Notes: generated from the sequence alone by a model not told the origin. Shown: positions 5,328-50,001, counted from the stretch's first letter. The stretch: DNA of 64,000 nucleotides from a virus (IMGVR_UViG_2700988807_000001:1-64000), one strand, 5' to 3'. Numbers and translations: made by a program.

Positions 5328-5342
5328 AGAAAGAGAATCGTC

Positions 5343-6959: not shown

Positions 6960-6968
6960 ACACGGCCT

Positions 6969-6981: not shown

Positions 6982-7018
6982 TACTGCTCGTTCCCCCACA
7001 CTATACTAGGAGACAAAG

Positions 7019-7321: not shown

Positions 7322-7337
7322 ACGAAAGATCAGTGCC

Positions 7338-38091: not shown

Positions 38092-38119
38092 TTCTTGTCC
38101 GAGGGAAGGAGGTGAAATT

Positions 38120-38704
38120 GTGGAGGAAACAAAACCAAAGTGGCATGCGGTTAAGCCTTGGAATCGTCACGGCTTAATCCTCACCGTCGTTGGTGTTGCG
38201 TATATTCTCATTGGAATCACCTACACCATCGCGCCACCAAGCGAGGCTCGCAGGGAAGCATTACATCTTGCTTTCAGCATCATGCCCTTTAGCTGGTGGG
38301 GTGTCGGTTTCATTGTGGTGGGAATCATCTCCACCATGTCATCTCGTTGGCCGTCGCTACCAAGAACGTTGGGATATTCGACGTTGACTGGGTGGTCTGC
38401 GGCTTGGGCCGGGTTTAATATTGTTGGTGGCCTATCGCAGCACGATACGCATCTATCCTATGCGGCAGGTGGTTTGGCATGGGGATTGATGGGTTTCCTT
38501 TGGTGGGCGATTAGCGGCTTAATTTGTCCACCTAAGGAAAGGGGGGTACGTGGACGCCCTGCCCCATATCGTGAGCCTAGCTGTCGCTTTGATTGCGGCA
38601 TTGTCCGCGTTAGCGACGCAGCGGGCGTCATCGAAAGCAAGTCGAACGGAGAAACAAGAAGCTTCCCGAGCCAGCATGGAGACGGAAGCGTACGAACGAG
38701 CTAG
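38120..38704 (+). CDS. Multi-pass membrane protein
   Basis: GTG after GGAGG; four hydrophobic helices; C-terminal tail overlaps the next gene. Confidence 0.6.
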   Translation: MEETKPKWHAVKPWNRHGLILTVVGVAYILIGITYTIAPPSEARREALHLAFSIMPFSWWGVGFIVVGIISTMSSRWPSLPRTLGYSTLTGWSAAWAGFNIVGGLSQHDTHLSYAAGGLAWGLMGFLWWAISGLICPPKERGVRGRPAPYREPSCRFDCGIVRVSDAAGVIESKSNGETRSFPSQHGDGSVRTS

Positions 38705-38891
38705 AGCTTTCGATACGGAGACGATCCGACGTCAGAACGAACAGATCGCAGCCCTCTTGGCTAAAGTTGCCAAGCAGGACGAGGAGATGCTTCAGCTTCA
38801 GGAGAAGTTGAAGATGACGAACGAACGTCTAGAGAGTATCGAAAGTCATACCTGTGGCCCGGATGCGGGCTTGGAGCCAGCTAATGGTTAA
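38550..38891 (+). CDS. Membrane-anchored coiled-coil protein
   Basis: N-terminal TM helix plus coiled coil; GGGGG RBS. Confidence 0.6.
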   Translation: MDALPHIVSLAVALIAALSALATQRASSKASRTEKQEASRASMETEAYERARAFDTETIRRQNEQIAALLAKVAKQDEEMLQLQEKLKMTNERLESIESHTCGPDAGLEPANG

Positions 38892-38900
38892 TCCTACTAT

Positions 38901-38943
38901 TCGCAAAAATTACACACCCTATAATGAGACCCCTATGAAAGGA
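38901..38943 (+). promoter_or_regulatory. Cassette promoter repeat copy 1 (TCGCA-N14-TATAAT-GAGACCCCTAYGAAAGGA)
   Basis: Perfect -10 TATAAT plus RBS module; one of 14 copies. Confidence 0.85.
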
Positions 38944-38949
38944 ACTGTA

Positions 38950-39249
38950 ATGTTCAACTCCAAGCCCTCCACCAGCAAGTCTGGCCTCGAAGACGCTATC
39001 AACAACCTTCTCTCTGAGATGGCCGGTTATGACGCGCACTCCGAAGCTTACGCCCAGATGGCGGACCAGCTTGTCAAGCTCTACGAACTGAAGGAAGTCG
39101 ACCACAAGGCCGAATCCGGAAAGCGCGTAAGTGCTGACACGCTGGCCATCGTCGGCGGCAACATCTTCGGAATCGCCATGATCGTCCTCTATGAGCAGAG
39201 GGGCGTTCTGACGTCCAAGGCCCTGCCTTTGCTGATGAAGCTGAAGTAA
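38950..39249 (+). CDS. Small hypothetical protein with C-terminal TM helix
   Basis: ATG just after the repeat RBS. Confidence 0.7.
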   Translation: MFNSKPSTSKSGLEDAINNLLSEMAGYDAHSEAYAQMADQLVKLYELKEVDHKAESGKRVSADTLAIVGGNIFGIAMIVLYEQRGVLTSKALPLLMKLK

Positions 39250-39273
39250 CATACACCCACACAGGTGCCCCCG

Positions 39274-39327
39274 ACTGAGGAGGCTTGTAAGGACGAGATT
39301 TATATCCTTGCAAGCCTTCTCAGTTTT
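39274..39327 (+). terminator. Intrinsic terminator-like hairpin
   Basis: ACTGAGGAGGCTTGTAAGGA / TCCTTGCAAGCCTTCTCAGT stem plus T-run. Confidence 0.7.
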
Positions 39328-39395
39328 CGTCGCATCAAAAACACGCCTTCTCAATTTTTCCCGGGGAGGACTTTTGGCTCAAAGTCTTCGAAGGG

Positions 39396-39438
39396 TCGCA
39401 TGTAAAACACACTATATAATGAGACCCCTACGAAAGGA
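39396..39438 (+). promoter_or_regulatory. Cassette promoter repeat copy 2
   Basis: TCGCATGTAAAACACACTATATAATGAGACCCCTACGAAAGGA. Confidence 0.85.
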
Positions 39439-39444
39439 ACCGAG

Positions 39445-39636
39445 ATGAAGAACTCCCCGCTCAAGGCTATCAAGAAGATCCACGCCCGACTGACCAAGAC
39501 TCAGAAGGAACGCGACCGCGACTTCCTCCAGGAATACATGAAGAACAATCCTGGATGGACGACGACTACGCAGTTCCAGAAAGATTACGAGGCCGCGTTC
39601 GGCTGCAACCCTCTTGACCAGCAGCGCAAGTCCTGA
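39445..39636 (+). CDS. Small hypothetical protein
   Basis: 63 aa behind the repeat RBS. Confidence 0.7.
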   Translation: MKNSPLKAIKKIHARLTKTQKERDRDFLQEYMKNNPGWTTTTQFQKDYEAAFGCNPLDQQRKS

Positions 39637-39658
39637 TCTACAAACCTAAGTACGATCC

Positions 39659-39699
39659 AAAACCACAAGTCCAATCTATACACGGACTTTTGGTTTTTT
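39659..39699 (+). terminator. Intrinsic terminator-like hairpin (ACAC-loop family)
   Basis: AAAACCACAAGTCC-AATCTATACAC-GGACTTTTGGTTTTTT. Confidence 0.75.
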
Positions 39700-39715
39700 C
39701 TATCTGGAGGTCGAC

Positions 39716-39931
39716 GTGACAAACAAGTTATTCGTCCTGACCAACACGCTGGTGGCGTACACGACTTCAGACTACGCTTTCGGAATTGTGGTCGGTGTCA
39801 CGGCAACACATATTTACTTCAAGACCAAGTACAAAGCGATGCTGACCCCTCACGACATGGACCGTCTCAAGATGGGGCTCCCTGTTCAACTCGACACCAG
39901 TCAAGGTCCGCTCTACATCAAGGGTATCTGA
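39716..39931 (+). CDS. Small membrane protein
   Basis: GGAGG RBS, GTG; TM segment; C-terminus resembles 40891 and 41948. Confidence 0.6.
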   Translation: MTNKLFVLTNTLVAYTTSDYAFGIVVGVTATHIYFKTKYKAMLTPHDMDRLKMGLPVQLDTSQGPLYIKGI

Positions 39932-39975
39932 TCGCACATATTACACGCCCTATAATGAAACCCTCGACGAAAGGA
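39932..39975 (+). promoter_or_regulatory. Cassette promoter repeat copy 3 (variant)
   Basis: TCGCACATATTACACGCCCTATAATGAAACCCTCGACGAAAGGA. Confidence 0.8.
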
Positions 39976-39981
39976 TCAGTA

Positions 39982-40149
39982 ATGAACACCAAGATTGCTG
40001 CCGTCAAGAACCATGTCAAGAAGCACCGAGCGATCTACGCTGCTGCAGGAACGCTAATCGTCTGCACGGCCGCGCATATTCGCATCGTGAGCAACTTGAA
40101 CAGGTTCCTTGACGCGCACGACCTGATGGATCAGTACTACATTGAATGA
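39982..40149 (+). CDS. Small membrane-associated protein
   Basis: MNTKIAAVKNHVKKH plus hydrophobic helix. Confidence 0.7.
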   Translation: MNTKIAAVKNHVKKHRAIYAAAGTLIVCTAAHIRIVSNLNRFLDAHDLMDQYYIE

Positions 40150-40158
40150 GAGTTCAAG

Positions 40159-40192
40159 AGCTGAGATGTCCTAACACGACATTTCAGTTTTT
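40159..40192 (+). terminator. Terminator-like hairpin (ACAC-loop family)
   Basis: AGCTGAGATGTC-CTAACAC-GACATTTCAGTTTTT. Confidence 0.7.
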
Positions 40193-40204
40193 CTCGTACG
40201 GGAA

Positions 40205-40247
40205 TCGCACAAAATACACACTATATAATGAGACCCCTACGAAAGGA
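40205..40247 (+). promoter_or_regulatory. Cassette promoter repeat copy 4
   Basis: TCGCACAAAATACACACTATATAATGAGACCCCTACGAAAGGA. Confidence 0.85.
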
Positions 40248-40254
40248 AACTGTC

Positions 40255-40404
40255 ATGAAGATCGCCAACATCAAGAACCACTTCCAGGCTCATGCCATCG
40301 AGTACGGTGTCGCAGGTACGTTCGCAACGTACATTGTCGGCAACATGCTCCTCAGCAAGACCCTGGAGAAGGTGATTACCAAGGCCATCTCCTCCGAGAA
40401 CTGA
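40255..40404 (+). CDS. Small membrane-associated protein (49 aa, not in ORF track)
   Basis: MKIANIKNHFQAHAIEYGVAGTFATYIVGNMLLSKTLEKVITKAISSEN behind the repeat RBS. Confidence 0.7.
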   Translation: MKIANIKNHFQAHAIEYGVAGTFATYIVGNMLLSKTLEKVITKAISSEN

Positions 40405-40421
40405 CCAATCAACAAGGAACC

Positions 40422-40461
40422 AAAACTGACTTGCCAATTTATACACGGCATTTCAGTTTTT
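40422..40461 (+). terminator. Terminator-like hairpin (ACAC-loop family)
   Basis: AAAACTGACTTGCC-AATTTATACAC-GGCATTTCAGTTTTT. Confidence 0.7.
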
Positions 40462-40469
40462 CGTACGGA

Positions 40470-40512
40470 TCGCATATTTAACACACCTTATAATGAGACC
40501 CCTACGAAAGGA
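40470..40512 (+). promoter_or_regulatory. Cassette promoter repeat copy 5
   Basis: TCGCATATTTAACACACCTTATAATGAGACCCCTACGAAAGGA. Confidence 0.85.
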
Positions 40513-40521
40513 ACACATCTA

Positions 40522-40794
40522 ATGAATAAGATTCACCTCGCCCTCGCAGCAGGTACGTTCGTCGTCGCTGGGATCGCCGCTGTCAACTACGCCCATATTT
40601 CTCGCGAAGAGAAAGCCAAGCGTGCCGAGATCAAGAAGAACCAAGAACTCGACATTCAGGCCATCAATCTCGCTGCTGAGCGAATGAAGGAAAAGTTGAA
40701 CGACGGCGTTCACTTCGAATCGATCTACGACCTGTTCCGCGATTTGGGTGACGAGATCAACTTCCAGAAGATCGCAGTTCGAATCGAAGACTGA
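40522..40794 (+). CDS. Small protein with N-terminal TM helix
   Basis: 90 aa behind the repeat RBS. Confidence 0.72.
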   Translation: MNKIHLALAAGTFVVAGIAAVNYAHISREEKAKRAEIKKNQELDIQAINLAAERMKEKLNDGVHFESIYDLFRDLGDEINFQKIAVRIED

Positions 40795-40799
40795 CTCAG

Positions 40800-40836
40800 A
40801 AACCTAAACCCACACGCAACACGGGTTTTAGGTTTT
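40800..40836 (+). terminator. Terminator-like hairpin (ACAC-loop family)
   Basis: AAACCTAAACCC-ACACGCAACAC-GGGTTTTAGGTTTT. Confidence 0.7.
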
Positions 40837-40841
40837 GTCTT

Positions 40842-40884
40842 TCGCAGGAAAAACACACATTATAATGAGACCCCTACGAAAGGA
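40842..40884 (+). promoter_or_regulatory. Cassette promoter repeat copy 6
   Basis: TCGCAGGAAAAACACACATTATAATGAGACCCCTACGAAAGGA. Confidence 0.85.
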
Positions 40885-40890
40885 CATATC

Positions 40891-41121
40891 ATGAAGAACA
40901 AGCTTGCTTCCGTCAAGAAGTTCGTGAAAGACAACGAAATCGTTATCGCTACAACAGCAATCCTCGCAGCAACTGCTGGCGCCACCATTGCCCTGACTCA
41001 CTACGCAGTCAAGATGGAAAACGCCGCGGCTGACTCCGAAGCATTGTTCTTGAAGGAGCACGGTTCGCAGGTCTACCGCGAAACCAACCACGGAACCATC
41101 TACTTCAGCATGAACCCCTAA
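40891..41121 (+). CDS. Small membrane-associated protein
   Basis: MKNKLASVKKFVKDN plus hydrophobic helix. Confidence 0.72.
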   Translation: MKNKLASVKKFVKDNEIVIATTAILAATAGATIALTHYAVKMENAAADSEALFLKEHGSQVYRETNHGTIYFSMNP

Positions 41122-41131
41122 GTAAGAACCG

Positions 41132-41167
41132 AAACCACGAGCCCAAGCAACACGGGCTTTTGGTTTT
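41132..41167 (+). terminator. Terminator-like hairpin (ACAC-loop family)
   Basis: AAACCACGAGCCC-AAGCAACAC-GGGCTTTTGGTTTT. Confidence 0.7.
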
Positions 41168-41172
41168 ACCAA

Positions 41173-41199
41173 TCGCAGAAAAAACACGCGCTATAATGA
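41173..41199 (+). promoter_or_regulatory. Cassette promoter repeat copy 7 (no GACCCCTA module; drives tRNA-like RNA)
   Basis: TCGCAGAAAAAACACGCGCTATAATGA. Confidence 0.8.
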
Positions 41200-41201
41200 A
41201 A

Positions 41202-41280
41202 GGAAAGACTCGTAGCTCAGTTGGAATGAGCGTCGTCAGCAATGACGAAGGTCGCAGGTTCGAGTCCTGCCGAGCTTTCC
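41202..41280 (+). ncRNA. tRNA-like RNA without a canonical anticodon loop
   Basis: D-arm TAGCTCAGTTGGAATGAGC, T-arm GCAGG-TTCGAGT-CCTGC, acceptor GGAAAG(A)CTCG/CGAGCTTTCC; anticodon arm TCGTCA-GCAA-TGACGA; no encoded CCA. Confidence 0.72.
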
Positions 41281-41295
41281 TTCTTATTTTTGCCT

Positions 41296-41322
41296 TCGCA
41301 GAAAAAACACACACTATAATGA
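41296..41322 (+). promoter_or_regulatory. Cassette promoter repeat copy 8 (no RBS module)
   Basis: TCGCAGAAAAAACACACACTATAATGA. Confidence 0.8.
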
Positions 41323-41451
41323 GAAGGAAACTTCTCCAATAAGAGAAAGGTGAGACGCGAATGCGTAGGTGAAACTCCTACCCACCTGGCGCAAACAACA
41401 ATAATCACGAGTTTTCAGCGGACCGTGAGCCCATGTTCTCTTATAGTTTTT
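41321..41451 (+). ncRNA. Putative structured small RNA
   Basis: GAGAAG-GAAA-CTTCTC hairpin; ATAAGAGAA/TTCTCTTAT closing stem; internal AGGTG/CACCT, GTAGG/CCTAC and TCACG/CGTGA helices; T-run end; no ORF with an RBS. Confidence 0.55.
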
Positions 41452-41550
41452 GCTTTATTTTACCTGAATTCGTCAGAGTGACGTTTTAGCCCATACCCCA
41501 GGTAGGGTCAGAACGTGGCTCTGGCCACTTCATGTATTTTTACGTAGGAA

Positions 41551-41593
41551 TCGCATGTAAAACACACCATATAATGAGACCCCTACGAAAGGA
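41551..41593 (+). promoter_or_regulatory. Cassette promoter repeat copy 9
   Basis: TCGCATGTAAAACACACCATATAATGAGACCCCTACGAAAGGA (near-identical to copy 2). Confidence 0.85.
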
Positions 41594-41598
41594 TTACC

Positions 41599-41850
41599 AT
41601 GATCAACGAGCTCAACGCCATCAAGCAGATCGTTGTCAACAACCCTACCGTCGTCAAGGCTACCCTCGCTGCAGCCGGACTGGCTGTCGGAACCACTGTC
41701 GCATACCGGATCAAGAAGAAAGAAGCTCTTCTTGCTGGAGGCGCTCAGTGGATGTCCGTCGAACAGTACGAGCAGCACGTAGCCGACAACGAAGGTGTTG
41801 ACCGCAACGACCTCCTTGAGGACGAGTACGTCGTCATCGACCCTCAGTAA
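41599..41850 (+). CDS. Small membrane-associated protein
   Basis: 83 aa; hydrophobic helix and acidic tail. Confidence 0.72.
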   Translation: MINELNAIKQIVVNNPTVVKATLAAAGLAVGTTVAYRIKKKEALLAGGAQWMSVEQYEQHVADNEGVDRNDLLEDEYVVIDPQ

Positions 41851-41855
41851 GAACC

Positions 41856-41895
41856 AAAAACCATAAGTCCAATCTATACACGGACTTTTGGTTTT
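41856..41895 (+). terminator. Terminator-like hairpin, near-identical to 39659-39699
   Basis: AAAAACCATAAGTCC-AATCTATACAC-GGACTTTTGGTTTT. Confidence 0.75.
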
Positions 41896-41901
41896 ACCCT
41901 T

Positions 41902-41944
41902 TCGCATATTTTACACACCCTATAATGAGACCCCTATGAAAGGA
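41902..41944 (+). promoter_or_regulatory. Cassette promoter repeat copy 10
   Basis: TCGCATATTTTACACACCCTATAATGAGACCCCTATGAAAGGA. Confidence 0.85.
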
Positions 41945-41947
41945 CCT

Positions 41948-42214
41948 ATGATGGAAATCAAGAACGAGATCAACGCTAAGATCGATTCCACCAAGAAGTT
42001 CGTAAAGAAGCACAAGACCTTCCTCGCATATACTGCGGGCGTTGTTGTCGGAGCTACTGGAGTGGCTGTTGCATTGAGCAATCAGTCAGCCCTGATAGTA
42101 ACCCGAGAACAAATCCGCCACATGCAGAGCGGTGGCGTGGTTGCATACGAATCTCCTGTTGGAACGATCCTTACTTGGATCAAGCCCGACAACATCAACA
42201 TCCCCACAACGTAA
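41948..42214 (+). CDS. Small membrane-associated protein
   Basis: KIDSTKKFVKKHK plus hydrophobic helix. Confidence 0.72.
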   Translation: MMEIKNEINAKIDSTKKFVKKHKTFLAYTAGVVVGATGVAVALSNQSALIVTREQIRHMQSGGVVAYESPVGTILTWIKPDNINIPTT

Positions 42215-42220
42215 GTCAAC

Positions 42221-42253
42221 GACTGAAGTTCCCTAACAAGGAATTTCAGTTTT
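42221..42253 (+). terminator. Terminator-like hairpin
   Basis: GACTGAAGTTCC-CTAACAA-GGAATTTCAGTTTT. Confidence 0.7.
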
Positions 42254-42302
42254 CCTTTTAAGGACAAAGGTTTACAACCTCGCATATTTCAAAGGAGAAC
42301 CA

Positions 42303-42539
42303 ATGTCCAAAGTCCAACTACTCAGACTGATCGGATCTCTGTTCATCATCGAGTCCGCAATCCTCGTCAAGATAGCTTGGGATCTTCACGACCGACAGCA
42401 AGATTTCGAAACTTCGGATGCGCTTCTGAATTACTGTCTCGACAAAGTCAATGAGGAAGCCGGGTTCGACGAGTTTGACATCGTTGCTCTGAACACGATC
42501 TTGGAGACAAACGGATCCATATTTCACAAAGGTCTCTAA
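42303..42539 (+). CDS. Small protein with N-terminal TM helix
   Basis: AAGGAG RBS; 78 aa. Confidence 0.65.
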   Translation: MSKVQLLRLIGSLFIIESAILVKIAWDLHDRQQDFETSDALLNYCLDKVNEEAGFDEFDIVALNTILETNGSIFHKGL

Positions 42540-42550
42540 CGTAACTTAAA

Positions 42551-42593
42551 TCGCAGAAAAAACACACCCTATAATGAGACCCCTATGAGAGGA
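42551..42593 (+). promoter_or_regulatory. Cassette promoter repeat copy 11
   Basis: TCGCAGAAAAAACACACCCTATAATGAGACCCCTATGAGAGGA. Confidence 0.85.
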
Positions 42594-42599
42594 TACGCC

Positions 42600-42692
42600 A
42601 TGACCGCTATTGTCGCTCCCGTGCTCATCACCACCTTCCTGGTTGTGCTGTACATGATCGCGCCGAAGCTTGCTGGTTACATCACCAAGTAG
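42600..42692 (+). CDS. 30-aa hydrophobic peptide (not in ORF track)
   Basis: MTAIVAPVLITTFLVVLYMIAPKLAGYITK, alone between a promoter repeat and a terminator. Confidence 0.65.
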   Translation: MTAIVAPVLITTFLVVLYMIAPKLAGYITK

Positions 42693-42696
42693 ATCG

Positions 42697-42741
42697 AAAA
42701 GCTTGAAGCTCCCTAACACGGAGTTTCAGCTTTCTGTTTTT
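42697..42741 (+). terminator. Terminator-like hairpin (ACAC-loop family)
   Basis: AAAAGCTTGAAGCTCC-CTAACAC-GGAGTTTCAGCTTTCTGTTTTT. Confidence 0.7.
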
Positions 42742-42788
42742 CCTCTCTCCCACACACCTATATTTTGATCACCTATGAAGGGACCACC

Positions 42789-43004
42789 ATGAAGAAGCTG
42801 GGCATCGTTGCCGTCTCCACCACCGTAGGATTCGCCGCGGGAGTGTCGAGCGTGGGCTACATCATCACGAACAAGAAGATCATGAAGAAGGTCTTGATGG
42901 CATATTTCAAGACGATCGACTTCTCAATGACCGACGAACAGACTCGAGTTCTCGGAGAGCTAACTCAGCAGATGAAGTTGGCAAAGACCAAGAAGAAGCC
43001 CTAA
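42789..43004 (+). CDS. Small membrane-associated protein
   Basis: GAAGGGA RBS; MKKLGIVAVSTTVGFAAGV. Confidence 0.65.
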   Translation: MKKLGIVAVSTTVGFAAGVSSVGYIITNKKIMKKVLMAYFKTIDFSMTDEQTRVLGELTQQMKLAKTKKKP

Positions 43005-43049
43005 CCTCTCGTCTCCACGCGCCACACTCATATTTGAAAGGCTATACCT

Positions 43050-43229
43050 ATGCGCAAGGCAACGTTCGTCCTGTCCGCTCTCAGCTTCGTCACCTCCGTC
43101 GCGACCCTCGGGGTTCTCGCTTACGGAGCAAAGAAGGTCCACAACGATATTCAGGGGATTCGAGAAAAGGTCAACACCTCCATCGGCCAGTTCAAGAAGA
43201 CCCTCGTCAACTTCGACTTCTCCGTCTAA
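43050..43229 (+). CDS. Small membrane-associated protein (59 aa, not in ORF track)
   Basis: GAAAGG RBS; MRKATFVLSALSFVTSVATLGVLAYGAKKV... Confidence 0.65.
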   Translation: MRKATFVLSALSFVTSVATLGVLAYGAKKVHNDIQGIREKVNTSIGQFKKTLVNFDFSV

Positions 43230-43257
43230 CTCACCGATCCAACGAAAGGGTAAGAAC

Positions 43258-43539
43258 ATGAGCGCGTACAACTCCTTCAACGACTTCCTCGCCAACAACC
43301 CGCAGTGGATCATATTCATCAGCATCGCCCTTCCGTGGGTCGGTCTCATGATGCTGGTGATGTTCTTCGAGAAGGGACGGAAGAAGCACAAGGCGGTTCG
43401 TAAGGCTTACAAGGCCGGCGAACTCCAGAAGCGCCCGAGCCGTCGCACCAACCTCACAGTCGTCGAGCCCGTGTCGAATCGTAAGGACGTTCCGTCCGAC
43501 TACTTCGATCGTGTCAACGAATTCCGAGCAAGCCTCTAA
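43258..43539 (+). CDS. Small membrane protein
   Basis: One TM helix, basic tail. Confidence 0.65.
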   Translation: MSAYNSFNDFLANNPQWIIFISIALPWVGLMMLVMFFEKGRKKHKAVRKAYKAGELQKRPSRRTNLTVVEPVSNRKDVPSDYFDRVNEFRASL

Positions 43540-43557
43540 GAAAGGTTTTCGCCTTCA

Positions 43558-43782
43558 ATGCTTTCGTCTACCATCAGCGTTCTCTGGGATATTCTTCTCG
43601 TCTTCTTGCTGATCATCGGTATCATCATCGTGATCGGACTTGTCACTGGCTGGATGGCTGTCGTGTGGACCTACGTCACGCGATTCGTCAATGCCTATCG
43701 TCGGGCCTCGCGTGAGCTAGAAGCTGCCGAGGAGCTCGAAAGGGTCGATGACGACGATCCCTACGGCAAGCTTGTCGACTGA
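43558..43782 (+). CDS. Small membrane protein
   Basis: Long hydrophobic N-terminus. Confidence 0.65.
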   Translation: MLSSTISVLWDILLVFLLIIGIIIVIGLVTGWMAVVWTYVTRFVNAYRRASRELEAAEELERVDDDDPYGKLVD

Positions 43783-43822
43783 CCAAATCTATCAACCATA
43801 TCTGAAACAACTCTGGAGAATC

Positions 43823-44617
43823 ATGAACCTCTCTGTCCTGGCGAAGAACCTCGAAAAGTTCGCGGTCGCCAATTCCCCCGCAATCCTGACTGGCATCGCT
43901 GTCACCGGCACGGTCGCAACGGCAATCCTGGCCGGCAAGGCATCGTTCAAGGCCGCGAAGATCATCGCCGGCGAAGAGGAGAAGATCAAGGACCGTATGG
44001 TCGAGGTCTCCGACGACGAGGAGACTGACCAAGAGCTCGATGTGAAGGCAAAGACCCTTCTCGTCTGGAAGCTCTATATTCCAGCAGCAAGCACCTGCGT
44101 CACGACCGTCATGGCCATGATCGCTGCCAACCAGATCGGCACCCGACGCACCGCGGCAATGGCAGCGGCATATTCTCTCTCGGAGAAGGCGTTCGGTGAG
44201 TACCGTGAGAAGATCGTCGAGAAGATGGGTCCTGCGAAGGAAGCCAAGGCTCGCGACGAACTTGCTCAGGAGCGCGTCTCTCGCACTCCGATGCCCTCCA
44301 GCCAGCTCATCATCACGGGTAACGAGGTTTGCTGCTTCGATCAGCACAGCGGTCGTTATTTCCTGAGCACGGTGGAAGATCTGAAGCAGGCTCAGAACAA
44401 CACGAACTACCGGATCATCAACGACGGTTACCAGAGCCTGAACGATTTCTACGATCGCATCGGCCTCGATATCGTCCCGACCGGCGAAGAGCTCGGATGG
44501 AACACCGACACGAAGCTGGAGCTGTACTTCTCGACCGTCATGTCTCCTGATCAGCGCCCCTGCGTCGCCATCGAGTTCGCCAAGGGTCCCATCGCAAACT
44601 ACTACAAGGGTCACTGA
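43823..44617 (+). CDS. Conserved phage protein (DUF6353-like), paralog of 50002
   Basis: NSPAILTG..V.G.V.T..LA.KA, KLYIPA, RR.AA.AAAY...EKAF.EYR.K, SLNDFYD..G...G..LGW. Confidence 0.7.
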   Translation: MNLSVLAKNLEKFAVANSPAILTGIAVTGTVATAILAGKASFKAAKIIAGEEEKIKDRMVEVSDDEETDQELDVKAKTLLVWKLYIPAASTCVTTVMAMIAANQIGTRRTAAMAAAYSLSEKAFGEYREKIVEKMGPAKEAKARDELAQERVSRTPMPSSQLIITGNEVCCFDQHSGRYFLSTVEDLKQAQNNTNYRIINDGYQSLNDFYDRIGLDIVPTGEELGWNTDTKLELYFSTVMSPDQRPCVAIEFAKGPIANYYKGH

Positions 44618-44649
44618 CCACCAACTACCATATTTGGGGAGGAACCACC

Positions 44650-44892
44650 ATGCACCACAAACAAGATCGTGAATTCACCTATGAGACGGGCACGGACGAG
44701 CCCCTCAATCCGGACCCGGCCATCGCCGCAAGTATGACGGAGCAGGGCGTCAGCAAGTGCGAGAACAGTTGCAAGCTCTACAAGCATCCGCGAGCAGACA
44801 TCATCGTCCTCGCACACAACTCGTCGTACGGATGCAAGCGCACCAAGTCCCATATCGTGAGTGAGTTCACGGAGGCGAACATCAATGCCTGA
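44650..44892 (+). CDS. Hypothetical protein
   Basis: GGAGG RBS; 80 aa; CxxxC. Confidence 0.6.
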   Translation: MHHKQDREFTYETGTDEPLNPDPAIAASMTEQGVSKCENSCKLYKHPRADIIVLAHNSSYGCKRTKSHIVSEFTEANINA

Positions 44893-45085
44893 GCGTGAGT
44901 ACTGGATGGTTCCTCTCCACGAGAGTCAGCCTGAGGACACCTACAGTCGCCTGCTTCTCAAGGTGTCGGGGCAATTCGCTGATATTCTGACGGTCGACGG
45001 CGGATACGAAAAGATCTACCTCGTCACCGAAGAGACCGCGCCGGCTCAGGACGATATTCTGAAGAGGGTGTTGGCTGATGCCTGA
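44885..45085 (+). CDS. Hypothetical protein
   Basis: ATG overlaps the previous gene; tight packing. Confidence 0.55.
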   Translation: MPEREYWMVPLHESQPEDTYSRLLLKVSGQFADILTVDGGYEKIYLVTEETAPAQDDILKRVLADA

Positions 45086-45311
45086 GCACATGACTGTCGC
45101 CCTCAAGGAGCTCTTTCCCGAGTCGTTGTGGAACGAGCTCTACCTGCGGACCGTACGACGTGAAGACGTCTACAGTTCGCACATGCTCATCACCTCGACC
45201 GGGGAAGTCAAGGAGTTGATCTCCACTCCGGGGTTCGAGGGTGTCTTCTCGCCGTTGTTGGTCAACCATAACGCAAACAATCTTCTAATGGGTATCGAAA
45301 GGGGTCTCTGA
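45078..45311 (+). CDS. Hypothetical protein
   Basis: 77 aa; overlapping start and stop. Confidence 0.55.
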   Translation: MPEHMTVALKELFPESLWNELYLRTVRREDVYSSHMLITSTGEVKELISTPGFEGVFSPLLVNHNANNLLMGIERGL

Positions 45312-45661
45312 TGTGCAATTATCCCGGTCCGATGATGGTTTCCATCGGAGACAGCGTCCCGGAAGAGACGTGGAATCGTATCAAGTTGCAGTGTGCGCTC
45401 AACTTGTACGGACGAATTGCTCCCGTCGTGACCGATGGCATTCGGAACGTCGGCGAGGTGTTTGTCAAAATGGGTGAGTCCATGAAGAACATCGACTTCA
45501 GTCACGCACAAGAGCAGATCGAGAAGGTCACACAAACACCTATTGCCGGCTTCCACTCCGTGGCCAATCCGATGCAGAAGGTCGAGTACGGCATCAAGGC
45601 GGCGTCGACGTCTCATATTCTCGAGTCCCTCGGGGTGACAAGCGACGGGCGTCATGTGTGA
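45311..45661 (+). CDS. Hypothetical protein
   Basis: 116 aa; TGATG coupling. Confidence 0.55.
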   Translation: MCNYPGPMMVSIGDSVPEETWNRIKLQCALNLYGRIAPVVTDGIRNVGEVFVKMGESMKNIDFSHAQEQIEKVTQTPIAGFHSVANPMQKVEYGIKAASTSHILESLGVTSDGRHV

Positions 45662-46070
45662 GGCGGGGACGTGCCGGCCGTGTCGGCTAGAGGATCGTTT
45701 GACCGATCGAGTCATGGGGACGACGCGAGACTACATCGAGTTCGTAAAGCTCCCGACCGTCGAACAGAACATGGCGAATCGTAAGATCCATGGACTGTCT
45801 CTTATTTCCTCGACCAACTCCAAGGTCCAGAGACAGACTCCGCCTCCCGGAAACCTCTCGTCCAAAGAGAGCATTGCGGCTCGAAAGAAGCGAGAGAACG
45901 CAAAGCGGAAGGCAAACCGAGAGCTTCGCAACGGCCGGCTATATTCTCTCGGATGCCCTGAGCATGGTACACCTTCCGGATACAAGCATTGGCACTGTCG
46001 ATGCGCACCTTGTACGGACGCGCACACCAAAGAGCGAAACGGTTCGTACCAAGGAAAGCAGGTAGGATGA
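45654..46070 (+). CDS. Zn-binding protein (HGT..GY...CRC..C motif)
   Basis: EHGTPSGYKHWHCRCAPCTDA. Confidence 0.65.
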   Translation: MCEAGTCRPCRLEDRLTDRVMGTTRDYIEFVKLPTVEQNMANRKIHGLSLISSTNSKVQRQTPPPGNLSSKESIAARKKRENAKRKANRELRNGRLYSLGCPEHGTPSGYKHWHCRCAPCTDAHTKERNGSYQGKQVG

Positions 46071-46297
46071 CCGCCCCAATCACACTCGAAGATCGAGAGC
46101 GTTGGCGAAAGAACCACACGAACAAGCTTGCCATCCGCAAGATGAATCGGAAGATGGTCAACGGACGACTCACGTCCACCATGCTCCAAGAGCATGGTAC
46201 GCCTTCCGGATACAACAATTGGTTCTGCCGATGCATCCCCTGCACCCAGGCATACAACGGTCGCAAGAAAGACAACCGCAAAAAGCGCCGTCGGTAG
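46067..46297 (+). CDS. Zn-binding protein, paralog of 45654
   Basis: EHGTPSGYNNWFCRCIPCTQA; ATGA overlap. Confidence 0.65.
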   Translation: MTAPITLEDRERWRKNHTNKLAIRKMNRKMVNGRLTSTMLQEHGTPSGYNNWFCRCIPCTQAYNGRKKDNRKKRRR

Positions 46298-46332
46298 CCC
46301 ACAAAGACTTATCTTCCCCAGAGACGTCTGCG

Positions 46333-46375
46333 TCGCAGAAAAAACACGCGCTATAATGAGACCCCTATGAAAGGA
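46333..46375 (+). promoter_or_regulatory. Cassette promoter repeat copy 12
   Basis: TCGCAGAAAAAACACGCGCTATAATGAGACCCCTATGAAAGGA. Confidence 0.85.
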
Positions 46376-46381
46376 ACAAAC

Positions 46382-46618
46382 ATGTCTGATCAGAACGAGA
46401 ACGTCGTCATCGAAGAAGATGCAATCGTCGTTCGTTTCCCCCGCTTCAAGAAGATCTTGAGGAAGATCGAAGACAACTCGGCACTCATCGCAGCTGTTAC
46501 CGCGACTGTAGTGACCTCGGTTGGAATCATCGCCCTCAAGCGACTCGACGAGAAGACGGTGGAGACGACGGAGGTTGTGGAAACAACGGTGATCGACGTC
46601 ACTCCCACTGAAGACTGA
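46382..46618 (+). CDS. Small membrane-associated protein
   Basis: Amphipathic basic helix plus TM; behind the repeat RBS. Confidence 0.7.
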   Translation: MSDQNENVVIEEDAIVVRFPRFKKILRKIEDNSALIAAVTATVVTSVGIIALKRLDEKTVETTEVVETTVIDVTPTED

Positions 46619-46637
46619 TATTCCCACACAGAGATCG

Positions 46638-46689
46638 AAAAGCGAAAGGCTTAGTAAAGAAATTTACTAGGTCTTTCTCTTTTGCTTTC
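46638..46689 (+). terminator. Terminator-like hairpin
   Basis: GAAAGGCTTAGTAAA-GAAA-TTTACTAGGTCTTTC plus T-rich tail. Confidence 0.6.
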
Positions 46690-46715
46690 ACGGACAAAGA
46701 GGATTGATTCCGCAA

Positions 46716-47210
46716 ATGGACCACAAGACGTTCAACGCATATTTGGAAGAGAAGTTCGACACAATTCGATCGACTCTCGGTCTCAAGGGTATGGAGTACG
46801 TCCCCGACGAGGGTGGCTCTCGCTTCCACAACTTCGATATTGCGGCAGCCTTCAACGACGAGTCCCCCGAGAAGGCGCTCTGGGGAATGCTCACCAAGCA
46901 TCTCGTGAGTATCGCGGACATGGTGAAGGTAGATCCGACCAAGCACGCCATGGAGGTGTGGGACGAGAAGATCGGTGACGCTCTCAACTACCTCCTCCTG
47001 CTCAACGGCATGGTGAAGGATCATCACGCCACGGCAGAGCTGGTTCGATTCCACACCGGCCTCATCAATGCCATGACTCCTCCGGACACCAACGTGACGA
47101 GCGCAGTCATTCAGAGTAACGACCACCTGTCGGGTCTGGCGAGTGGCGGAATCGAGTCAGTTCGTAAGGACGACACACATGACAGTGCTTGCTGTTCCCA
47201 GCAGCCCTGA
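46716..47210 (+). CDS. All-alpha nucleotide pyrophosphatase-like protein (MazG-like/nucleotide-modification-associated)
   Basis: K..EY......RFHNF..AA...KH...D...EKIGDALNYLLLL pattern. Confidence 0.55.
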   Translation: MDHKTFNAYLEEKFDTIRSTLGLKGMEYVPDEGGSRFHNFDIAAAFNDESPEKALWGMLTKHLVSIADMVKVDPTKHAMEVWDEKIGDALNYLLLLNGMVKDHHATAELVRFHTGLINAMTPPDTNVTSAVIQSNDHLSGLASGGIESVRKDDTHDSACCSQQP

Positions 47211-47252
47211 CCATATTCTCACCCAGCAAGAACACACAAGGAGCACAAAGTA

Positions 47253-47894
47253 ATGCTGAAGCAGACCGTCGAGTACACCGACTTCGATGACAACCGTTGC
47301 GCCGAGACGCTCTATTTCAATCTCACCAAGACCGAGCTTGCAGAGAACGCTCACCTGCAGGATCGTCTCGAGTCGATGCAGAAGATGTTTGGTGGTGAGA
47401 AGCGTCAGCTCGAGAGCGCGGAGATCAAGGAGATCCTCGAACTCGTCAAGACGATCATGCGTATTTCCTACGGTGTTCGCAGTGCCGATGGCAAGCGATT
47501 CATCAAGACGGAGGATCAGTGGGTCGAGTTCACCCAGACGGCCGTCTACGACGAGTTCCTCATCTCCATGTTCACGGATCCGGACAAGATGTTCGCGTTC
47601 ATGTACGGGATCATGCCGGCTGACATGCGCGATCAGGCAAAGGCCGAGGCCGAGCGACTTGCAGCGGAGCGTTCCATTTCTCAGGCAGCTCAGAACACTC
47701 AGGCTCCGACTCCGCCGGCTCCTCCCGCCGCTCCTGCTGCGATGACCACGGGTGTCCCTACCAACCCGCCTGTGGATATTGTGGTCAACGAGCAGCCGGC
47801 AGCCGGTCAGCCCACCCAGGAACAGATGGCTGCTTACCTGCGCGATCAGCAGGCTCGTGGCGGACTGACCCAGCCGGGCTACTTGCAGGGCTGA
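47253..47894 (+). CDS. Conserved hypothetical protein with Pro/Ala-rich tail
   Basis: AAGGAG RBS; Y.DFD.....E.LYFNL.K.EL, SYGVRS.DGKRFIK. Confidence 0.7.
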   Translation: MLKQTVEYTDFDDNRCAETLYFNLTKTELAENAHLQDRLESMQKMFGGEKRQLESAEIKEILELVKTIMRISYGVRSADGKRFIKTEDQWVEFTQTAVYDEFLISMFTDPDKMFAFMYGIMPADMRDQAKAEAERLAAERSISQAAQNTQAPTPPAPPAAPAAMTTGVPTNPPVDIVVNEQPAAGQPTQEQMAAYLRDQQARGGLTQPGYLQG

Positions 47895-48053
47895 TTCATA
47901 TTTGAGGAAGAGGGGTTTGGCAAGGGTCCTTTGTAGGGGTCTCGCCCTAGTCCGGATGCCAAACTTAAACGACAGCCGTAGTGCTGTGGGGAAGCAGCGA
48001 ATCATGCTCCCTCGACCTCACCACACACCTATATTTGAGTTGAAAGGATCGTC

Positions 48054-48440
48054 ATGCCTACCATCGATCAAGTCAAGACGCACCTCCGTGAGAACAAGAA
48101 GGTCTATATTGTCGGTGGCGCCTGCCTCGCGGTAGGTGTCCTGGCTGGAACGACTCTTCTTACCAAGGAGTCCCCTGAGATTGTGGTAAACCCCAAGATC
48201 CAGCAGATCATGAGCTGGAAGCCGACAGCAACGTTGAAGGTGCATATCGAGGCGCTTGGAGATCCAGGAAACATCATTCAGGACGTCACAACAGGAACCG
48301 TCTATGCAAGCCAGGGACAGGCGGCTCGAGCTTTGGGCGTCAATCCCGCGCGCATATCTGAGCACTTGTCTGGAAAGATTCCTAACGTGCAGGGTCACTC
48401 ATTCAAGTTCTTGGGTAAGGCTGACTCAATCGCAGGATAA
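48054..48440 (+). CDS. Membrane-anchored protein with NUMOD1-like HTH
   Basis: N-terminal hydrophobic helix; TG.VYASQGQAARALGVNPARISEHL.G HTH. Confidence 0.65.
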   Translation: MPTIDQVKTHLRENKKVYIVGGACLAVGVLAGTTLLTKESPEIVVNPKIQQIMSWKPTATLKVHIEALGDPGNIIQDVTTGTVYASQGQAARALGVNPARISEHLSGKIPNVQGHSFKFLGKADSIAG

Positions 48441-48456
48441 ACACGCCCTATAATGA
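48430..48456 (+). promoter_or_regulatory. Cassette promoter repeat copy 13 (no RBS module)
   Basis: TCGCAGGATAAACACGCCCTATAATGA. Confidence 0.8.
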
Positions 48457-48750
48457 GAAGAAACGATAAGCTTAAAACGCTAATCCTTGAATCGCCCCTT
48501 TAGGGGAGGTCATCCGTAAGCACTGTCTTTGGTTGGAAGGTAACAGCCGCTTATCGTTTTATAACCGCTTGGAACCGCCATTGGGTAGTTCTGGAGGCCT
48601 GCCATTGGGCGGACCTTCGTGGCCTACCGTTTGGGTGGACCACCAATGTTATATTCTCGATGAGAAGATAGAACCGCTTGGAACACCTTTATGAGGAGTT
48701 CTGGCAGCCACCTTTATGAGGAGACCACCAAAGTTCTATCTTCTCATATT
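48455..48750 (+). ncRNA. Putative ~295-nt multi-hairpin non-coding RNA with two homologous domains
   Basis: AAACGATAAGC/GCTTATCGTTT stem; perfect 15-bp ATGAGAAGATAGAAC/GTTCTATCTTCTCAT stem; repeated AACCGCTTGGAAC...AGTTCTGG...ACCACCAA units; no ORF of 60 aa or more. Confidence 0.65.
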
Positions 48751-48755
48751 TCGCA

Positions 48756-48798
48756 TCGCAGATAAAACACGCCCTATAATGAGACCCCTACGAAAGGA
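48756..48798 (+). promoter_or_regulatory. Cassette promoter repeat copy 14
   Basis: TCGCAGATAAAACACGCCCTATAATGAGACCCCTACGAAAGGA. Confidence 0.85.
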
Positions 48799-48805
48799 AC
48801 TGGTA

Positions 48806-49051
48806 ATGACCAAGCTGGAAATGCTGAAGCTCGCTGTTTCTTCGATCGTCGGTGTCGGTACCTCCAAGATCGTCAAGTCCATCATTGCCAACAATGTCGA
48901 ACTCGATACTCCGGTAGACCAAGTTACGGTCACCGCGGGATCGTTCGTCATCGGCGCGATGGTCGCAGACGCTTCGAAGGACTACACCGATGCCAAGATC
49001 GACGAAATTGCCGAAGCCTTCAGAAGCTTCAGAGAAACCGTCCAGAACTGA
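48806..49051 (+). CDS. Small hypothetical protein
   Basis: MTKLEMLK... behind the repeat RBS. Confidence 0.7.
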   Translation: MTKLEMLKLAVSSIVGVGTSKIVKSIIANNVELDTPVDQVTVTAGSFVIGAMVADASKDYTDAKIDEIAEAFRSFRETVQN

Positions 49052-49065
49052 CACGAACACATCTC

Positions 49066-49103
49066 AAAATTGAAAAGCCCGCAACACTAGGCTTTTCAGT
49101 TTT
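49066..49103 (+). terminator. Terminator-like hairpin (ACAC-loop family)
   Basis: AAAATTGAAAAGCC-CGCAACACTA-GGCTTTTCAGTTTT. Confidence 0.7.
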
Positions 49104-49129
49104 CAACATCGAGGTATGAGGAACATATT

Positions 49130-49810
49130 ATGGAAGACTACCCCAGCAACAGCCAGAAGCCGAAGGTCGACAAGAAGCCGGCCGCGAAACAAGACGGGAA
49201 GCCCGAGCAGAAGAAGCCGGAAGTCAAGCAGATCACCGTCGGTACAGTCACTCGTCGTAAGAAGCCGCTCGGTCGGCGAGTCATGGAGACGTTCGGTGGC
49301 GGAGACGCCCAGGGCGTAGGATCTTATATTCTGCAGGACGTGCTTCTTCCCGCGGCCAAGGACATGGTTGCTGATGCTGTCTCCCAGGGTATCGAGAAGA
49401 TGCTCTTCGGTGAGTCTCGGGGTAGGCGAACTCGATCGTCCTCGTCTGGATATTCCGGCGGAAACAACCGGACCCCGTACAACTCCAGCTACAACGGTGG
49501 AAGTCGATACGCGGTCAACCCGGGACATCGGCAAGAACCTCGTCAGATGAGCCACCGAGGCCGAGCCACCCACAACTTCGACGAGATCGTTCTCGATTCT
49601 CGGGCCGAAGCGACAGAGGTTCTCGACAACCTCTACAGCATGATTTCTCAGTACGACGTCGCCACCGTTGCCGATCTCTACAACATGGTCGGTGTGACAG
49701 GTGACTTCACTGACGAGAAGTGGGGTTGGGTCGAGCTTCACGGCGCCCAGGTGCGACATGTCAGGGATGGATATCTGCTAGAACTTCCGCGCCCTGAACA
49801 CCTCGGCTAA
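49130..49810 (+). CDS. Conserved hypothetical protein
   Basis: DVL.PAAKD, R.EA..VL..L...I..Y..ATVADLY..VG...FTD.KWGW. Confidence 0.7.
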   Translation: MEDYPSNSQKPKVDKKPAAKQDGKPEQKKPEVKQITVGTVTRRKKPLGRRVMETFGGGDAQGVGSYILQDVLLPAAKDMVADAVSQGIEKMLFGESRGRRTRSSSSGYSGGNNRTPYNSSYNGGSRYAVNPGHRQEPRQMSHRGRATHNFDEIVLDSRAEATEVLDNLYSMISQYDVATVADLYNMVGVTGDFTDEKWGWVELHGAQVRHVRDGYLLELPRPEHLG

Positions 49811-49846
49811 GAGGTAGGTACGGCGCGCCAAACGGGAGGTGGCGTG

Positions 49847-49990
49847 ATGTCTAACGATATTCTCTTGAAAGCCAACGCACTCAAGGGAGCGTACCCAGGA
49901 AGTCCTACCTGGAAATCTAAAGTGGACAAGATGAGCGACAACCAAATCGTGGCCGTATATTTGCGGCTCAAGCGAGAAAACAAGGTTTAG
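49847..49990 (+). CDS. Small hypothetical protein (47 aa, not in ORF track)
   Basis: GGAGGT RBS; MSNDILLKANALKGAYPGSPTWKSKVDKMSDNQIVAVYLRLKRENKV. Confidence 0.6.
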   Translation: MSNDILLKANALKGAYPGSPTWKSKVDKMSDNQIVAVYLRLKRENKV

Positions 49991-50001
49991 GAGACCAACA
50001 C

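Follow-up and report, generated by a model that had tools for sequence, protein, structure and literature searches.

The stretch of viral DNA IMGVR_UViG_2700988807_000001:1-64000, hereafter the window (64,000 nucleotides [nt] from a complete genome of 76,797 bp), carries an array of small genes, in which single-gene cassettes stand behind copies of a 43-bp repeat. The last tail genes (Dit, Gp37-like) precede the array, and the replication module (DUF6353, primase-polymerase) follows it. The repeat follows the pattern TCGCA-N14-TATAATGA, which has 14 exact matches in the window, all on the + strand (38901, 39396, 39932, 40205, 40470, 40842, 41173, 41296, 41551, 41902, 42551, 46333, 48430, and 48756), and none in 100 shuffles. 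With a central ACAC included and up to three mismatches allowed, the same 14 copies were recovered, against 0.10 expected. Across the complete genome, the exact motif occurs 14 times forward and 0 times in reverse, and the reversed-pattern control gave 0. A looser scan adds two weak copies in the right arm outside the window (genome positions 69818 and 72596) and one match at 46488, which lies inside an open reading frame (ORF) and is probably a chance match. When the 14 copies are aligned, TCGCA, ACAC, and TATAATGA are invariant and the spacers between them vary, which indicates selection on these positions and not merely recent duplication.

The leader GACCCCTAYGAAAGGA follows exactly in nine of the 14 copies and in close variants at 39932 and 42551, and in all 11 of these an ATG lies 5 to 8 nt farther on, with a Shine-Dalgarno sequence present. 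The three copies that lack the leader precede a tRNA (41173) and two structured noncoding RNAs (41296 and 48430). A script scan found a hairpin with a T-run behind 11 of the 14 units (dG of -11.7 to -29.3), and the three RNA units have 3' hairpins or T-runs of their own as ends. The terminators at about 39650 to 39660 and 41850 to 41857 are near-identical over ~50 nt. A consensus scan for TTGACA-N16-18-TATAAT called none of the 14 copies, so that none has a TTGACA-like -35 element at 16 to 18 bp; the end of TCGCA lies 14 bp from the start of TATAAT. A preliminary description, made from the sequence alone, had listed the 14 coordinates with their fixed spacing and central ACAC, 11 copies continuing through a leader to an ATG, hairpins with T-runs at the ends of most cassettes, one near-duplicated terminator (39659 versus 41856), and the lack of a canonical TTGACA, and each of these observations was reproduced here by search or scan. 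The 43-bp repeat thus behaves as a promoter and leader module, with a single orientation, a constant distance to start codons, tRNA, or the two noncoding RNAs, and a usual place behind the preceding terminator.

All features of the array are on the + strand. Cassette 1 (38901 to 39330) consists of a promoter (38901 to 38925) with a predicted +1 at 38926, a leader containing GAAAGGA, an ORF for 99 amino acids (aa) with a hydrophobic segment (38950 to 39249), and a terminator hairpin at 39276 to 39323 with a T-run (dG of -29.3). It is followed by a decayed promoter copy (39330 to 39356) that, as read from the sequence, retains TCGCA and ACAC and has TCTCAA in place of TATAAT. Cassette 2 (39396 to 39705) has its promoter at 39396 to 39420, an ORF of 63 aa at 39445 to 39636, and a terminator at ~39660 to 39696, and behind it lies an ORF without a promoter copy (39716 to 39931; 71 aa, GTG start, own GGAGG) that is a homolog of gp043 of Rhodococcus phage ReqiPoco6 (Poco6). 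The next four cassettes are cassette 3 (39932 to 40197; promoter 39932 to 39956, variant leader, ORF 39982 to 40149 of 55 aa with a transmembrane [TM] segment, terminator 40159 to 40189), cassette 4 (40205 to 40466; promoter 40205 to 40229, ORF 40255 to 40404 of 49 aa, terminator 40424 to 40458), cassette 5 (40470 to 40840; promoter 40470 to 40494, ORF 40522 to 40794 of 90 aa with an N-terminal TM segment, terminator 40799 to 40836), and cassette 6 (40842 to 41172; promoter 40842 to 40866, ORF 40891 to 41121 of 76 aa with a TM segment, terminator 41134 to 41164). Two RNA units come next. Cassette 7 (41173 to 41295; promoter 41173 to 41197) carries a tRNA with anticodon AGC at 41206 to 41280, and cassette 8 (41296 to 41550; promoter 41296 to 41320) carries a structured noncoding RNA of ~220 nt from 41321, which ends in a hairpin with a T-run at ~41515 to 41545.

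Protein-coding units resume with cassette 9 (41551 to 41900; promoter 41551 to 41575, ORF 41599 to 41850 of 83 aa with a TM segment, terminator 41857 to 41895) and cassette 10 (41902 to 42260; promoter 41902 to 41926, ORF 41948 to 42214 of 88 aa with a TM segment, terminator 42221 to 42251). Between the latter and cassette 11, an ORF of 78 aa (42303 to 42539) stands behind a truncated promoter-like leader, TCGCATATTTCAAAGGAG (unit 42262 to 42539). Cassette 11 (42551 to 42742; promoter 42551 to 42575) contains a hydrophobic mini-ORF of 30 aa (42600 to 42692) and a terminator at 42698 to 42736. The block from 42745 to 46332 has no intact promoter copies; it has decayed leaders at ~42745 and ~43015 and tightly packed genes (42790 to 46297), of which those at 43050 to 43229, 43258 to 43539, 43558 to 43782, and 43748 to 44617 encode TM proteins. 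Cassette 12 (46333 to 46690; promoter 46333 to 46357, ORF 46382 to 46618 of 78 aa with a TM segment, terminator 46644 to 46677) is followed by genes without their own promoter copy (46704 to 48440), namely 46704 to 47210, 47253 to 47894, and 48054 to 48440 (128 aa, TM segment). Cassette 13 (48430 to 48755; promoter 48430 to 48454) carries a structured noncoding RNA of ~300 nt from 48455, and cassette 14 (48756 to 49108; promoter 48756 to 48780, ORF 48806 to 49051 of 81 aa with a TM segment) ends in a hairpin at 49069 to 49100 with a T-run. The replication module starts directly afterwards, at 49130. Overall, the cassette proteins are 30 to 128 aa long and most have one hydrophobic segment. Of ten that were compared with PHROGs, eight matched only families of unknown function and two matched no family there.

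Position 1 of the tRNA in cassette 7 sits 9 nt after TATAAT, in the window and in Poco6 alike. This tRNA has C at the near-universal U33, and its Poco6 homolog is annotated "tRNA-OTHER." In other contigs, ARAGORN gave odd anticodon loops ("tRNA-???") to many of the tRNA-like genes that follow the motif. The stretches behind the copies at 41296 (~220 nt) and 48430 (~300 nt) contain no credible ORF, and the RNAs that begin at 41321 and 48455 fold better than 200 of 200 shuffles (z of -4.07 and -3.56, respectively). The RNA at 41321 to 41545 is found directly behind the promoter motif in seven different phage contigs, with homologs in L009 (2407 to 2629), L012 (~2157 to 2296), L126, L079, L064, and L040, and 13 of its 31 predicted pairs show compensatory changes across the seven contigs. 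The family is ~110 to 220 nt long with a conserved core (…AAGGYGAGACRCGAATGYGTAGG…CCTACCYRCCTGG…). The second RNA (48455 to 48755) contains a tandem CACCTTTATGAGGAG repeat, and its first ~80 nt recur in conserved form in a Gordonia DJ-type contig (L012, 10182 to 10262), there too downstream of a promoter copy; a close metagenomic relative has a 26-nt insertion within it, at 48706. Searches of Rfam at the gathering threshold, and also at E values up to 10, returned nothing for the two RNA units and only the tRNA. A 5'-terminal hairpin in the RNA from 41321 was considered as support for the start site and was rejected, as it is not conserved in the homologs.

Several terminator loops of the array end in ACAC or ACAA next to the 3' arm (39676 to 39686, 40171 to 40177, 40441 to 40451, 40812 to 40822, 41146 to 41154, 41875 to 41885, and 42710 to 42716), a sequence that resembles the TTACA(C) box of the promoter. 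We compared the loops of 326 hairpins that lie upstream of motif copies in a range of phages; 134 of them end in ACA(A/C/T), with ~1.6% expected by chance. This loop sequence may serve as a termination signal specific to the polymerase.

The motif has already been described in relatives. Announcements of cluster DJ Gordonia phages describe a 43- to 50-bp intergenic motif that was read as a "sigma-70 -10 TATAAT" (PMC9671010), a reading repeated in a second announcement (PMC10868162), and they place it among terminators and genes whose products are membrane or secreted proteins and link it to rearrangements (PMC9671010, PMC10868162, PMC11008172). The repeat in the window corresponds to that motif, as it has the TATAAT, is intergenic and mid-genome, and lies upstream of small genes. 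By megablast, it was matched at 90 to 93% identity in 41 Gordonia phage records, one of which, Kenosha, has 10 copies. In IMG/VR, the 17-base pattern TCGCA-N6-ACAC-N4-TATAATGA occurs in at least 100 stretches, many of them multicopy. Among the matches listed, 150 distinct instances have an A/T-rich spacer ending in TT, a G after ACAC, GA(G/A)A after TATAAT, and a T-run upstream. By comparison, the exact pattern occurs in only 38 stretches of 596 Gb of bacterial and archaeal genomes, which is near the chance level (~70 by our own estimate), and in this set no match was found in Rhodococcus or Gordonia. The bacterial contigs with two or more copies are 30- to 90-kb contigs of Firmicutes metagenome-assembled genomes (MAGs), in which a T-run precedes the motif and a Shine-Dalgarno sequence with ATG or a tRNA follows it. 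The motif is therefore phage-specific and spans two host phyla, Actinobacteria and Firmicutes.

The genome also encodes a candidate for the enzyme that reads this motif. Its last large gene (genome positions 73543 to 76257, outside the window) encodes a 904-aa protein with the sequence GADFDGDTV, which contains the catalytic motif DFDGD, and a weak match to the Pfam RdRP family. Helix-turn-helix (HTH) and sigma-70 region-4-like matches are found at residues ~70 to 105 and ~865 to 893. The protein has a pair of HTH units in its N-terminal part and a single one in its C-terminal part. A sequence search against Protein Data Bank (PDB) chains gave only a short HTH match. The AlphaFold model (pLDDT, the predicted local distance difference test score, of 78.7) has as its best PDB matches in Foldseek QDE-1 (E of 9e-9), the phage RNA polymerases P74 gp62 and P32 gp64 (E of ~3e-6), plant RDR2, and P23-45 gp96. 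As modeled, the 904-aa protein is a two-barrel YonO/QDE-1-like RNA polymerase. According to bioRxiv 10.1101/842583, a putative polymerase of the YonO/crAss-like type, flanked on either side by HTH domains, is common to phages of the Pepy6/Poco6 type (cluster CC) and of clusters DJ, BI, AM/AU/AW, and EL and is also found in the Lactococcus 1706 and Faecalibacterium groups; it is there among the few genes common to the entire actinophage supercluster and the Lactococcus/Faecalibacterium group and the only one of them with DNA-binding domains.

Homologs of the polymerase were found by tblastn in at least 248 phage records. We sampled 13 polymerase-bearing records (Gordonia, Streptomyces, Arthrobacter, Curtobacterium, oral samples, and Lactococcus), and 12 of them carry the motif at two or fewer mismatches, with 107 forward copies and 1 reverse; the reversed-pattern controls gave 0 and 1. 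Conversely, polymerase homologs with 45 to 52% identity are encoded by five of five motif-bearing Firmicutes MAGs, and in four of these the gene appears to lie on the motif's own contig, judging by matching contig numbers (three) or matching length (one). Among 25 motif-bearing IMG/VR contigs, 22 encode the polymerase, including nine of nine that are at least 90% complete, and the three without it are 47 to 78% complete. Polymerase and repeat array thus share a genome here, and in general the motif occurs together with the polymerase and is absent from host genomes, a pattern that is confounded by shared ancestry. The weak copy at 72596 lies ~950 bp upstream of the polymerase gene, and a similar distance is seen in Circum, Egad, and Paella. 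In the 12 phages the motif arrays are always downstream of tail genes. None of the genomes examined has a copy upstream of structural genes, as would suit an early or middle role.

The boxes also vary by lineage. The absence of the exact motif from Lactococcus phage 1706 and from P092, the 13th record, was entertained as a counterexample and rejected, since a looser scan revealed lineage-specific variants in both. Circum has TCGCG; phage 1706 has YCRCA...TTTTACA...TATAGT in ~12 copies, all with TATAGT; and P092 keeps the TTTACAYACCCTATAAT half and TTTTACAYACCCTATAAT, with TCGCA changed to TTTTA. That every copy in phage 1706 has TATAGT suggests that the box tracks the phage lineage and not the host. 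P092 alone also has PGSVT in place of ESSVR in what is putatively the recognition helix of its second N-terminal HTH.

The position of tRNAs behind the motif in related phages bears on where transcription starts. Infernal places position 1 of the tRNA 2 nt after TATAAT in contigs L106, L135, and L206 and 5 nt after it in L141 and L193. The 15 tRNAs called by ARAGORN behind the motif have offsets of 2 (four), 5 (two), 6 (two), 7 (two), 8 (three), and 9 (two), with none below 2 or above 9 under a pattern that allowed up to 18. There are 33 pattern matches in all, of which 17 have an offset of 5 or less and 18 were not called as tRNAs, and the argument is based on the confirmed tRNAs and not on all 33. 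A sigma-70-type polymerase starts 6 to 9 nt after the -10 hexamer, so that at offsets of 2 and 5 a host-type start would fall inside the tRNA. A start at the G/A adjoining TATAAT is compatible with all cases and gives leaders of 1 to 8 nt. We infer such a start from these spacings; it would put TATAAT at -6 to -1, in the layout of a T7-type promoter with a purine-rich initial sequence.

These spacings bear on the alternative in which host sigma-A recognizes the repeats as promoters, with TATAAT as their -10 element, and TCGCA and ACAC either bind a phage factor (an activator or a sigma-appropriation protein) or contact the host RNA polymerase directly. The TATAAT is perfect, and the window's own tRNA, at an offset of 9 nt, is compatible with a host-type start. 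In T4 middle promoters, which work by sigma appropriation through MotA and AsiA, a MotA box centered at -30 is combined with a sigma -10 element, and TCGCA, ending 14 bp upstream of TATAAT, is near that position. The cluster DJ announcements read the element as a sigma-70 -10 (PMC9671010, PMC10868162), and the host sigma holoenzyme reads an extended conserved motif of the crAss-like phage phi14:2 that is likewise present in front of tRNAs (bioRxiv 2020.03.07.982082). However, a start at +7 would truncate the five Infernal-confirmed tRNAs with position 1 at 2 or 5 nt, there is no -35 element (0 of 14 copies pass the sigma-70 scan), phages of two host phyla conserve the upstream boxes, which host genomes lack, and phage 1706 has TATAGT throughout. 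On balance, we consider this alternative rather unlikely. The preliminary description had proposed transcription by host RNA polymerase with TATAAT as the -10, which fits poorly with the tRNA offsets in relatives and with boxes that are conserved across two host phyla and absent from host genomes. Its other suggestion, a phage activator, comes nearer in that it invokes a phage factor, but an HTH-flanked two-barrel polymerase is the more likely factor than an activator of the host enzyme.

The interpretation that we favor, with a probability of roughly 0.6, is that the repeat is the promoter of the phage's own polymerase, which is probably carried in the virion. The first 25 bp, TCGCA-N4-(T/A)(T/A)ACAC-N4-TATAAT, would be the recognition site of this single-polypeptide RNA polymerase and not of the host sigma-A holoenzyme. 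Its HTH units may recognize TCGCA and TTACA/ACAC as duplex DNA, the two boxes being spaced by about one helical turn; TATAAT at -6 to -1 would be the melting region, and transcription would begin at the G/A right behind it (GARA...), as at T7-type promoters. The transcripts would then be short. Those that encode protein would be monocistronic mRNAs, each for a small and mostly single-pass membrane protein, and the others would be a tRNA and the two structured RNAs; all would stop at an intrinsic-type hairpin and U-run. The structural proteins of phage 1706 were reportedly identified by mass spectrometry. Poco6 gp106, a polymerase homolog, is annotated as a "structural protein" by similarity, and GenBank EU081845 gives the same label to orf75, the polymerase homolog of phage 1706, which suggests that the enzyme is probably virion-carried and injected. 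If so, the units would be immediate-early genes independent of the host polymerase; the term "early genes," used for the cassettes in the preliminary description, is likewise a matter of interpretation. Precedents exist in the two-barrel RNA polymerases of P23-45, each of which has its own conserved promoter motif, as argued from the same type of co-occurrence (bioRxiv 2022.12.01.518664), and in the virion-borne polymerases that transcribe the first genes of N4, crAss-like phi14:2, and P23-45 (bioRxiv 2022.12.01.518664, bioRxiv 2020.03.07.982082).

Several points weigh against assigning the repeat to the phage polymerase. TATAAT is the universal sigma-A -10 consensus, and the phi14:2 motif read by the host holoenzyme is a precedent for the opposite assignment. 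Motif and polymerase lie within one phage lineage, so that co-inheritance alone could yield their association. The start site is drawn from relatives and not from transcripts of the window phage, whose only tRNA, 9 nt after TATAAT, fits either start model. The link between HTH and box is a hint from one divergent lineage, P092, and the proposed virion delivery is based on annotation lines of two relatives. In the part of bioRxiv 2020.03.07.982082 that was accessible, the virion polymerase of phi14:2 has no detectable promoter motif, and YonO of prophage SPbeta is described as transcribing late genes, not early ones, from an undefined promoter (PMC5467207).

A wider form of the proposal extends it to the whole family of HTH-fused YonO-like two-barrel polymerases, with a 25-bp core TCGCR-N3-WTTACA-N5-TATA(A/G)T, followed at the start site by GA, as the family promoter. 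A virion-borne enzyme would read TCGCA with one N-terminal HTH and TTACA with the C-terminal HTH, start after TATAAT, and stop at hairpins with a conserved (C)UAACA(A/C) loop signal. We put this generalization forward tentatively, as plausible rather than probable. If true, such a self-contained transcription system would account for the passage of one phage lineage between Actinobacteria and Firmicutes with its promoters kept letter for letter.

Comparison with relatives shows how the content of the array changes. The nearest public genome is that of Poco6, with 83.6% identity over only 42% of positions 38000 to 50000, in seven pieces. The Poco6 annotation cross-references ReqiPepy6 (Pepy6) gene by gene, and a tail gene in the window matches the Pfam family named for ReqiPepy6 gp37. 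Judged by these similarities, the window phage is a Rhodococcus siphovirus of the Pepy6/Poco6 type. In a blastn chain against Poco6, the gene behind the promoter at 39396 has been swapped for an unrelated one, with homology ending at 39439; the ORF at 40255 to 40404 is absent from Poco6, homology stopping at 40247 and resuming at 40424; the ORF at 40891 to 41121 is absent as well; and 48020 to 48755 is absent, with homology restarting exactly at the promoter at 48756. In turn, Poco6 contains one small-ORF cassette more, unannotated and bracketed by two identical promoter copies. This cassette, with promoter, leader, ATG, and terminator, lies at L009 2069 to 2381 (42787 to 43099 of the record), within a 627-bp annotation gap. 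Promoter and terminator modules make up 12.9% of the region, and seven of the 15 homology breakpoints between the window and Poco6 are at most 10 nt from one, against 1.94 expected (binomial P = 0.0015); the remaining eight are inside multigene blocks. From four DNA metagenome runs, most joints at repeats were left out (28 to 47 letters on the shorter side, repeated sequence) and only a 49-kb contig was used. This contig, from a close relative that is 97 to 98% identical, has ~230 nt inserted near 46700, right after a terminator, and a replacement of 299 nt at 48149 to 48660.

The preliminary description had portrayed the array as a plug-and-play island of modular gene shuffling and had proposed comparing cassette content between relatives. 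That comparison was made, and the clustering of breakpoints at the repeats bears the idea out. The data support a view in which repeated identical promoters and related terminators would provide recombination homology, through which cassettes are gained, lost, and swapped between relatives, in keeping with the rearrangements to which the repeat is tied in cluster DJ (PMC11008172). The breakpoint clustering, the changes in the 49-kb relative, and the DJ rearrangements could also be taken to mean that the repeats serve chiefly for the recombination or mobility of mini-cassettes of the promoter-early stem-loop (PeSL) kind, or as phage repressor operators, and that their promoter look is secondary. 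However, strict orientation, constant spacing to Shine-Dalgarno-ATG, tRNA, and noncoding RNA 5' ends, and the usual place behind a terminator are hallmarks of promoters. Moreover, eight of the 15 breakpoints are away from repeats, no recombinase is associated with the array, and any repeated sequence recombines with no need of a dedicated function. We regard this explanation as improbable.

The array resembles the PeSL cassettes of T4-type phages, reportedly described by Arbiol et al. in 2010, in that repeated promoter and hairpin units surround single small ORFs in a hyperplastic region whose content varies at the repeats, and here too indels between relatives are bounded by repeats that flank single ORFs. 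The two are unrelated in sequence, and PeSL promoters are host sigma-70 early promoters, whereas geometry and distribution here point to a phage polymerase. The promoters of T7-type polymerases and of the virion and nonvirion RNA polymerases (vRNAP, nvRNAP) of P23-45 share with the repeat a long, near-invariant, phage-specific motif adjoining the start, an AT-rich box before +1, a purine-rich start, and occurrence only in relatives that encode the enzyme. They differ in motif sequence, and the enzyme here has HTH domains at both ends. YonO, from the SPbeta prophage of Bacillus, belongs broadly to the same family, being a DNA-dependent RNA polymerase with two barrels in a single chain, and Pfam RdRP matches both proteins. 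However, YonO transcribes a late operon from one start site with an undefined promoter and resembles the enzyme here only distantly; for single-chain two-barrel polymerases of the YonO type, PMC5467207 explicitly describes the promoters as undefined.

The closest counterpart is the cluster DJ motif (Vardy, Conley, and Mossy), which is the same sequence element in the same mid-genome setting among small membrane-protein genes and terminators, with the same link to rearrangements. The DJ notes report five copies per genome, compared with 14 here (plus the two weak ones), three of which drive RNAs, and they describe a host sigma-70 -10 plus a translational start, with no polymerase link, cross-phylum survey, or start-site argument. 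Arrays of small membrane-protein genes occupy the same genome position in Pepy6, Poco6, and Arthrobacter clusters AM and AU (PMC5513430), and in the accessible text of that paper "promoter," "motif," and "RNA polymerase" have 0 occurrences. Our literature search found no paper linking the motif to the polymerase, a search that did not cover Summer et al. 2011, the Pepy6/Poco6 paper, which may describe repeats or the virion proteome. The HTH-flanked two-barrel phage polymerase as reader of the motif is thus a new proposal.

Other genes of the window were observed in passing. Six successive genes at 115 to 8183 share an Mtd_N-like N-terminal module of ~40 aa and then diverge, and one of them has a pectate-lyase-like depolymerase domain; this row looks like a bank of alternative tail fibers or spikes. 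Just upstream of the large terminase gene, 10645 to 12276 encodes a 543-aa protein with a 2'-5' RNA ligase/LigT-like phosphoesterase domain. A single gene for 719 aa (22118 to 24277) matches both the head maturation protease family and the major capsid protein, a combination also seen in Arthrobacter clusters AM and AU.

The array illustrates how repeated promoters and terminators can make a region plug-and-play, with small membrane proteins, tRNAs, and new structured RNAs as its contents. It also offers a testable promoter, a 25-bp sequence with a predicted +1 and defined boxes, for a polymerase family present in at least 248 sequenced phages. If the assignment is confirmed, the annotation of the cluster DJ "sigma-70" motif would be corrected, and polymerase, promoter, and terminator would make up a minimal orthogonal set for high-GC (guanine-plus-cytosine) Actinobacteria and for Firmicutes. 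Confirmation would also provide a reason why these phages keep ~50% GC in hosts of 67% GC and cross phyla.

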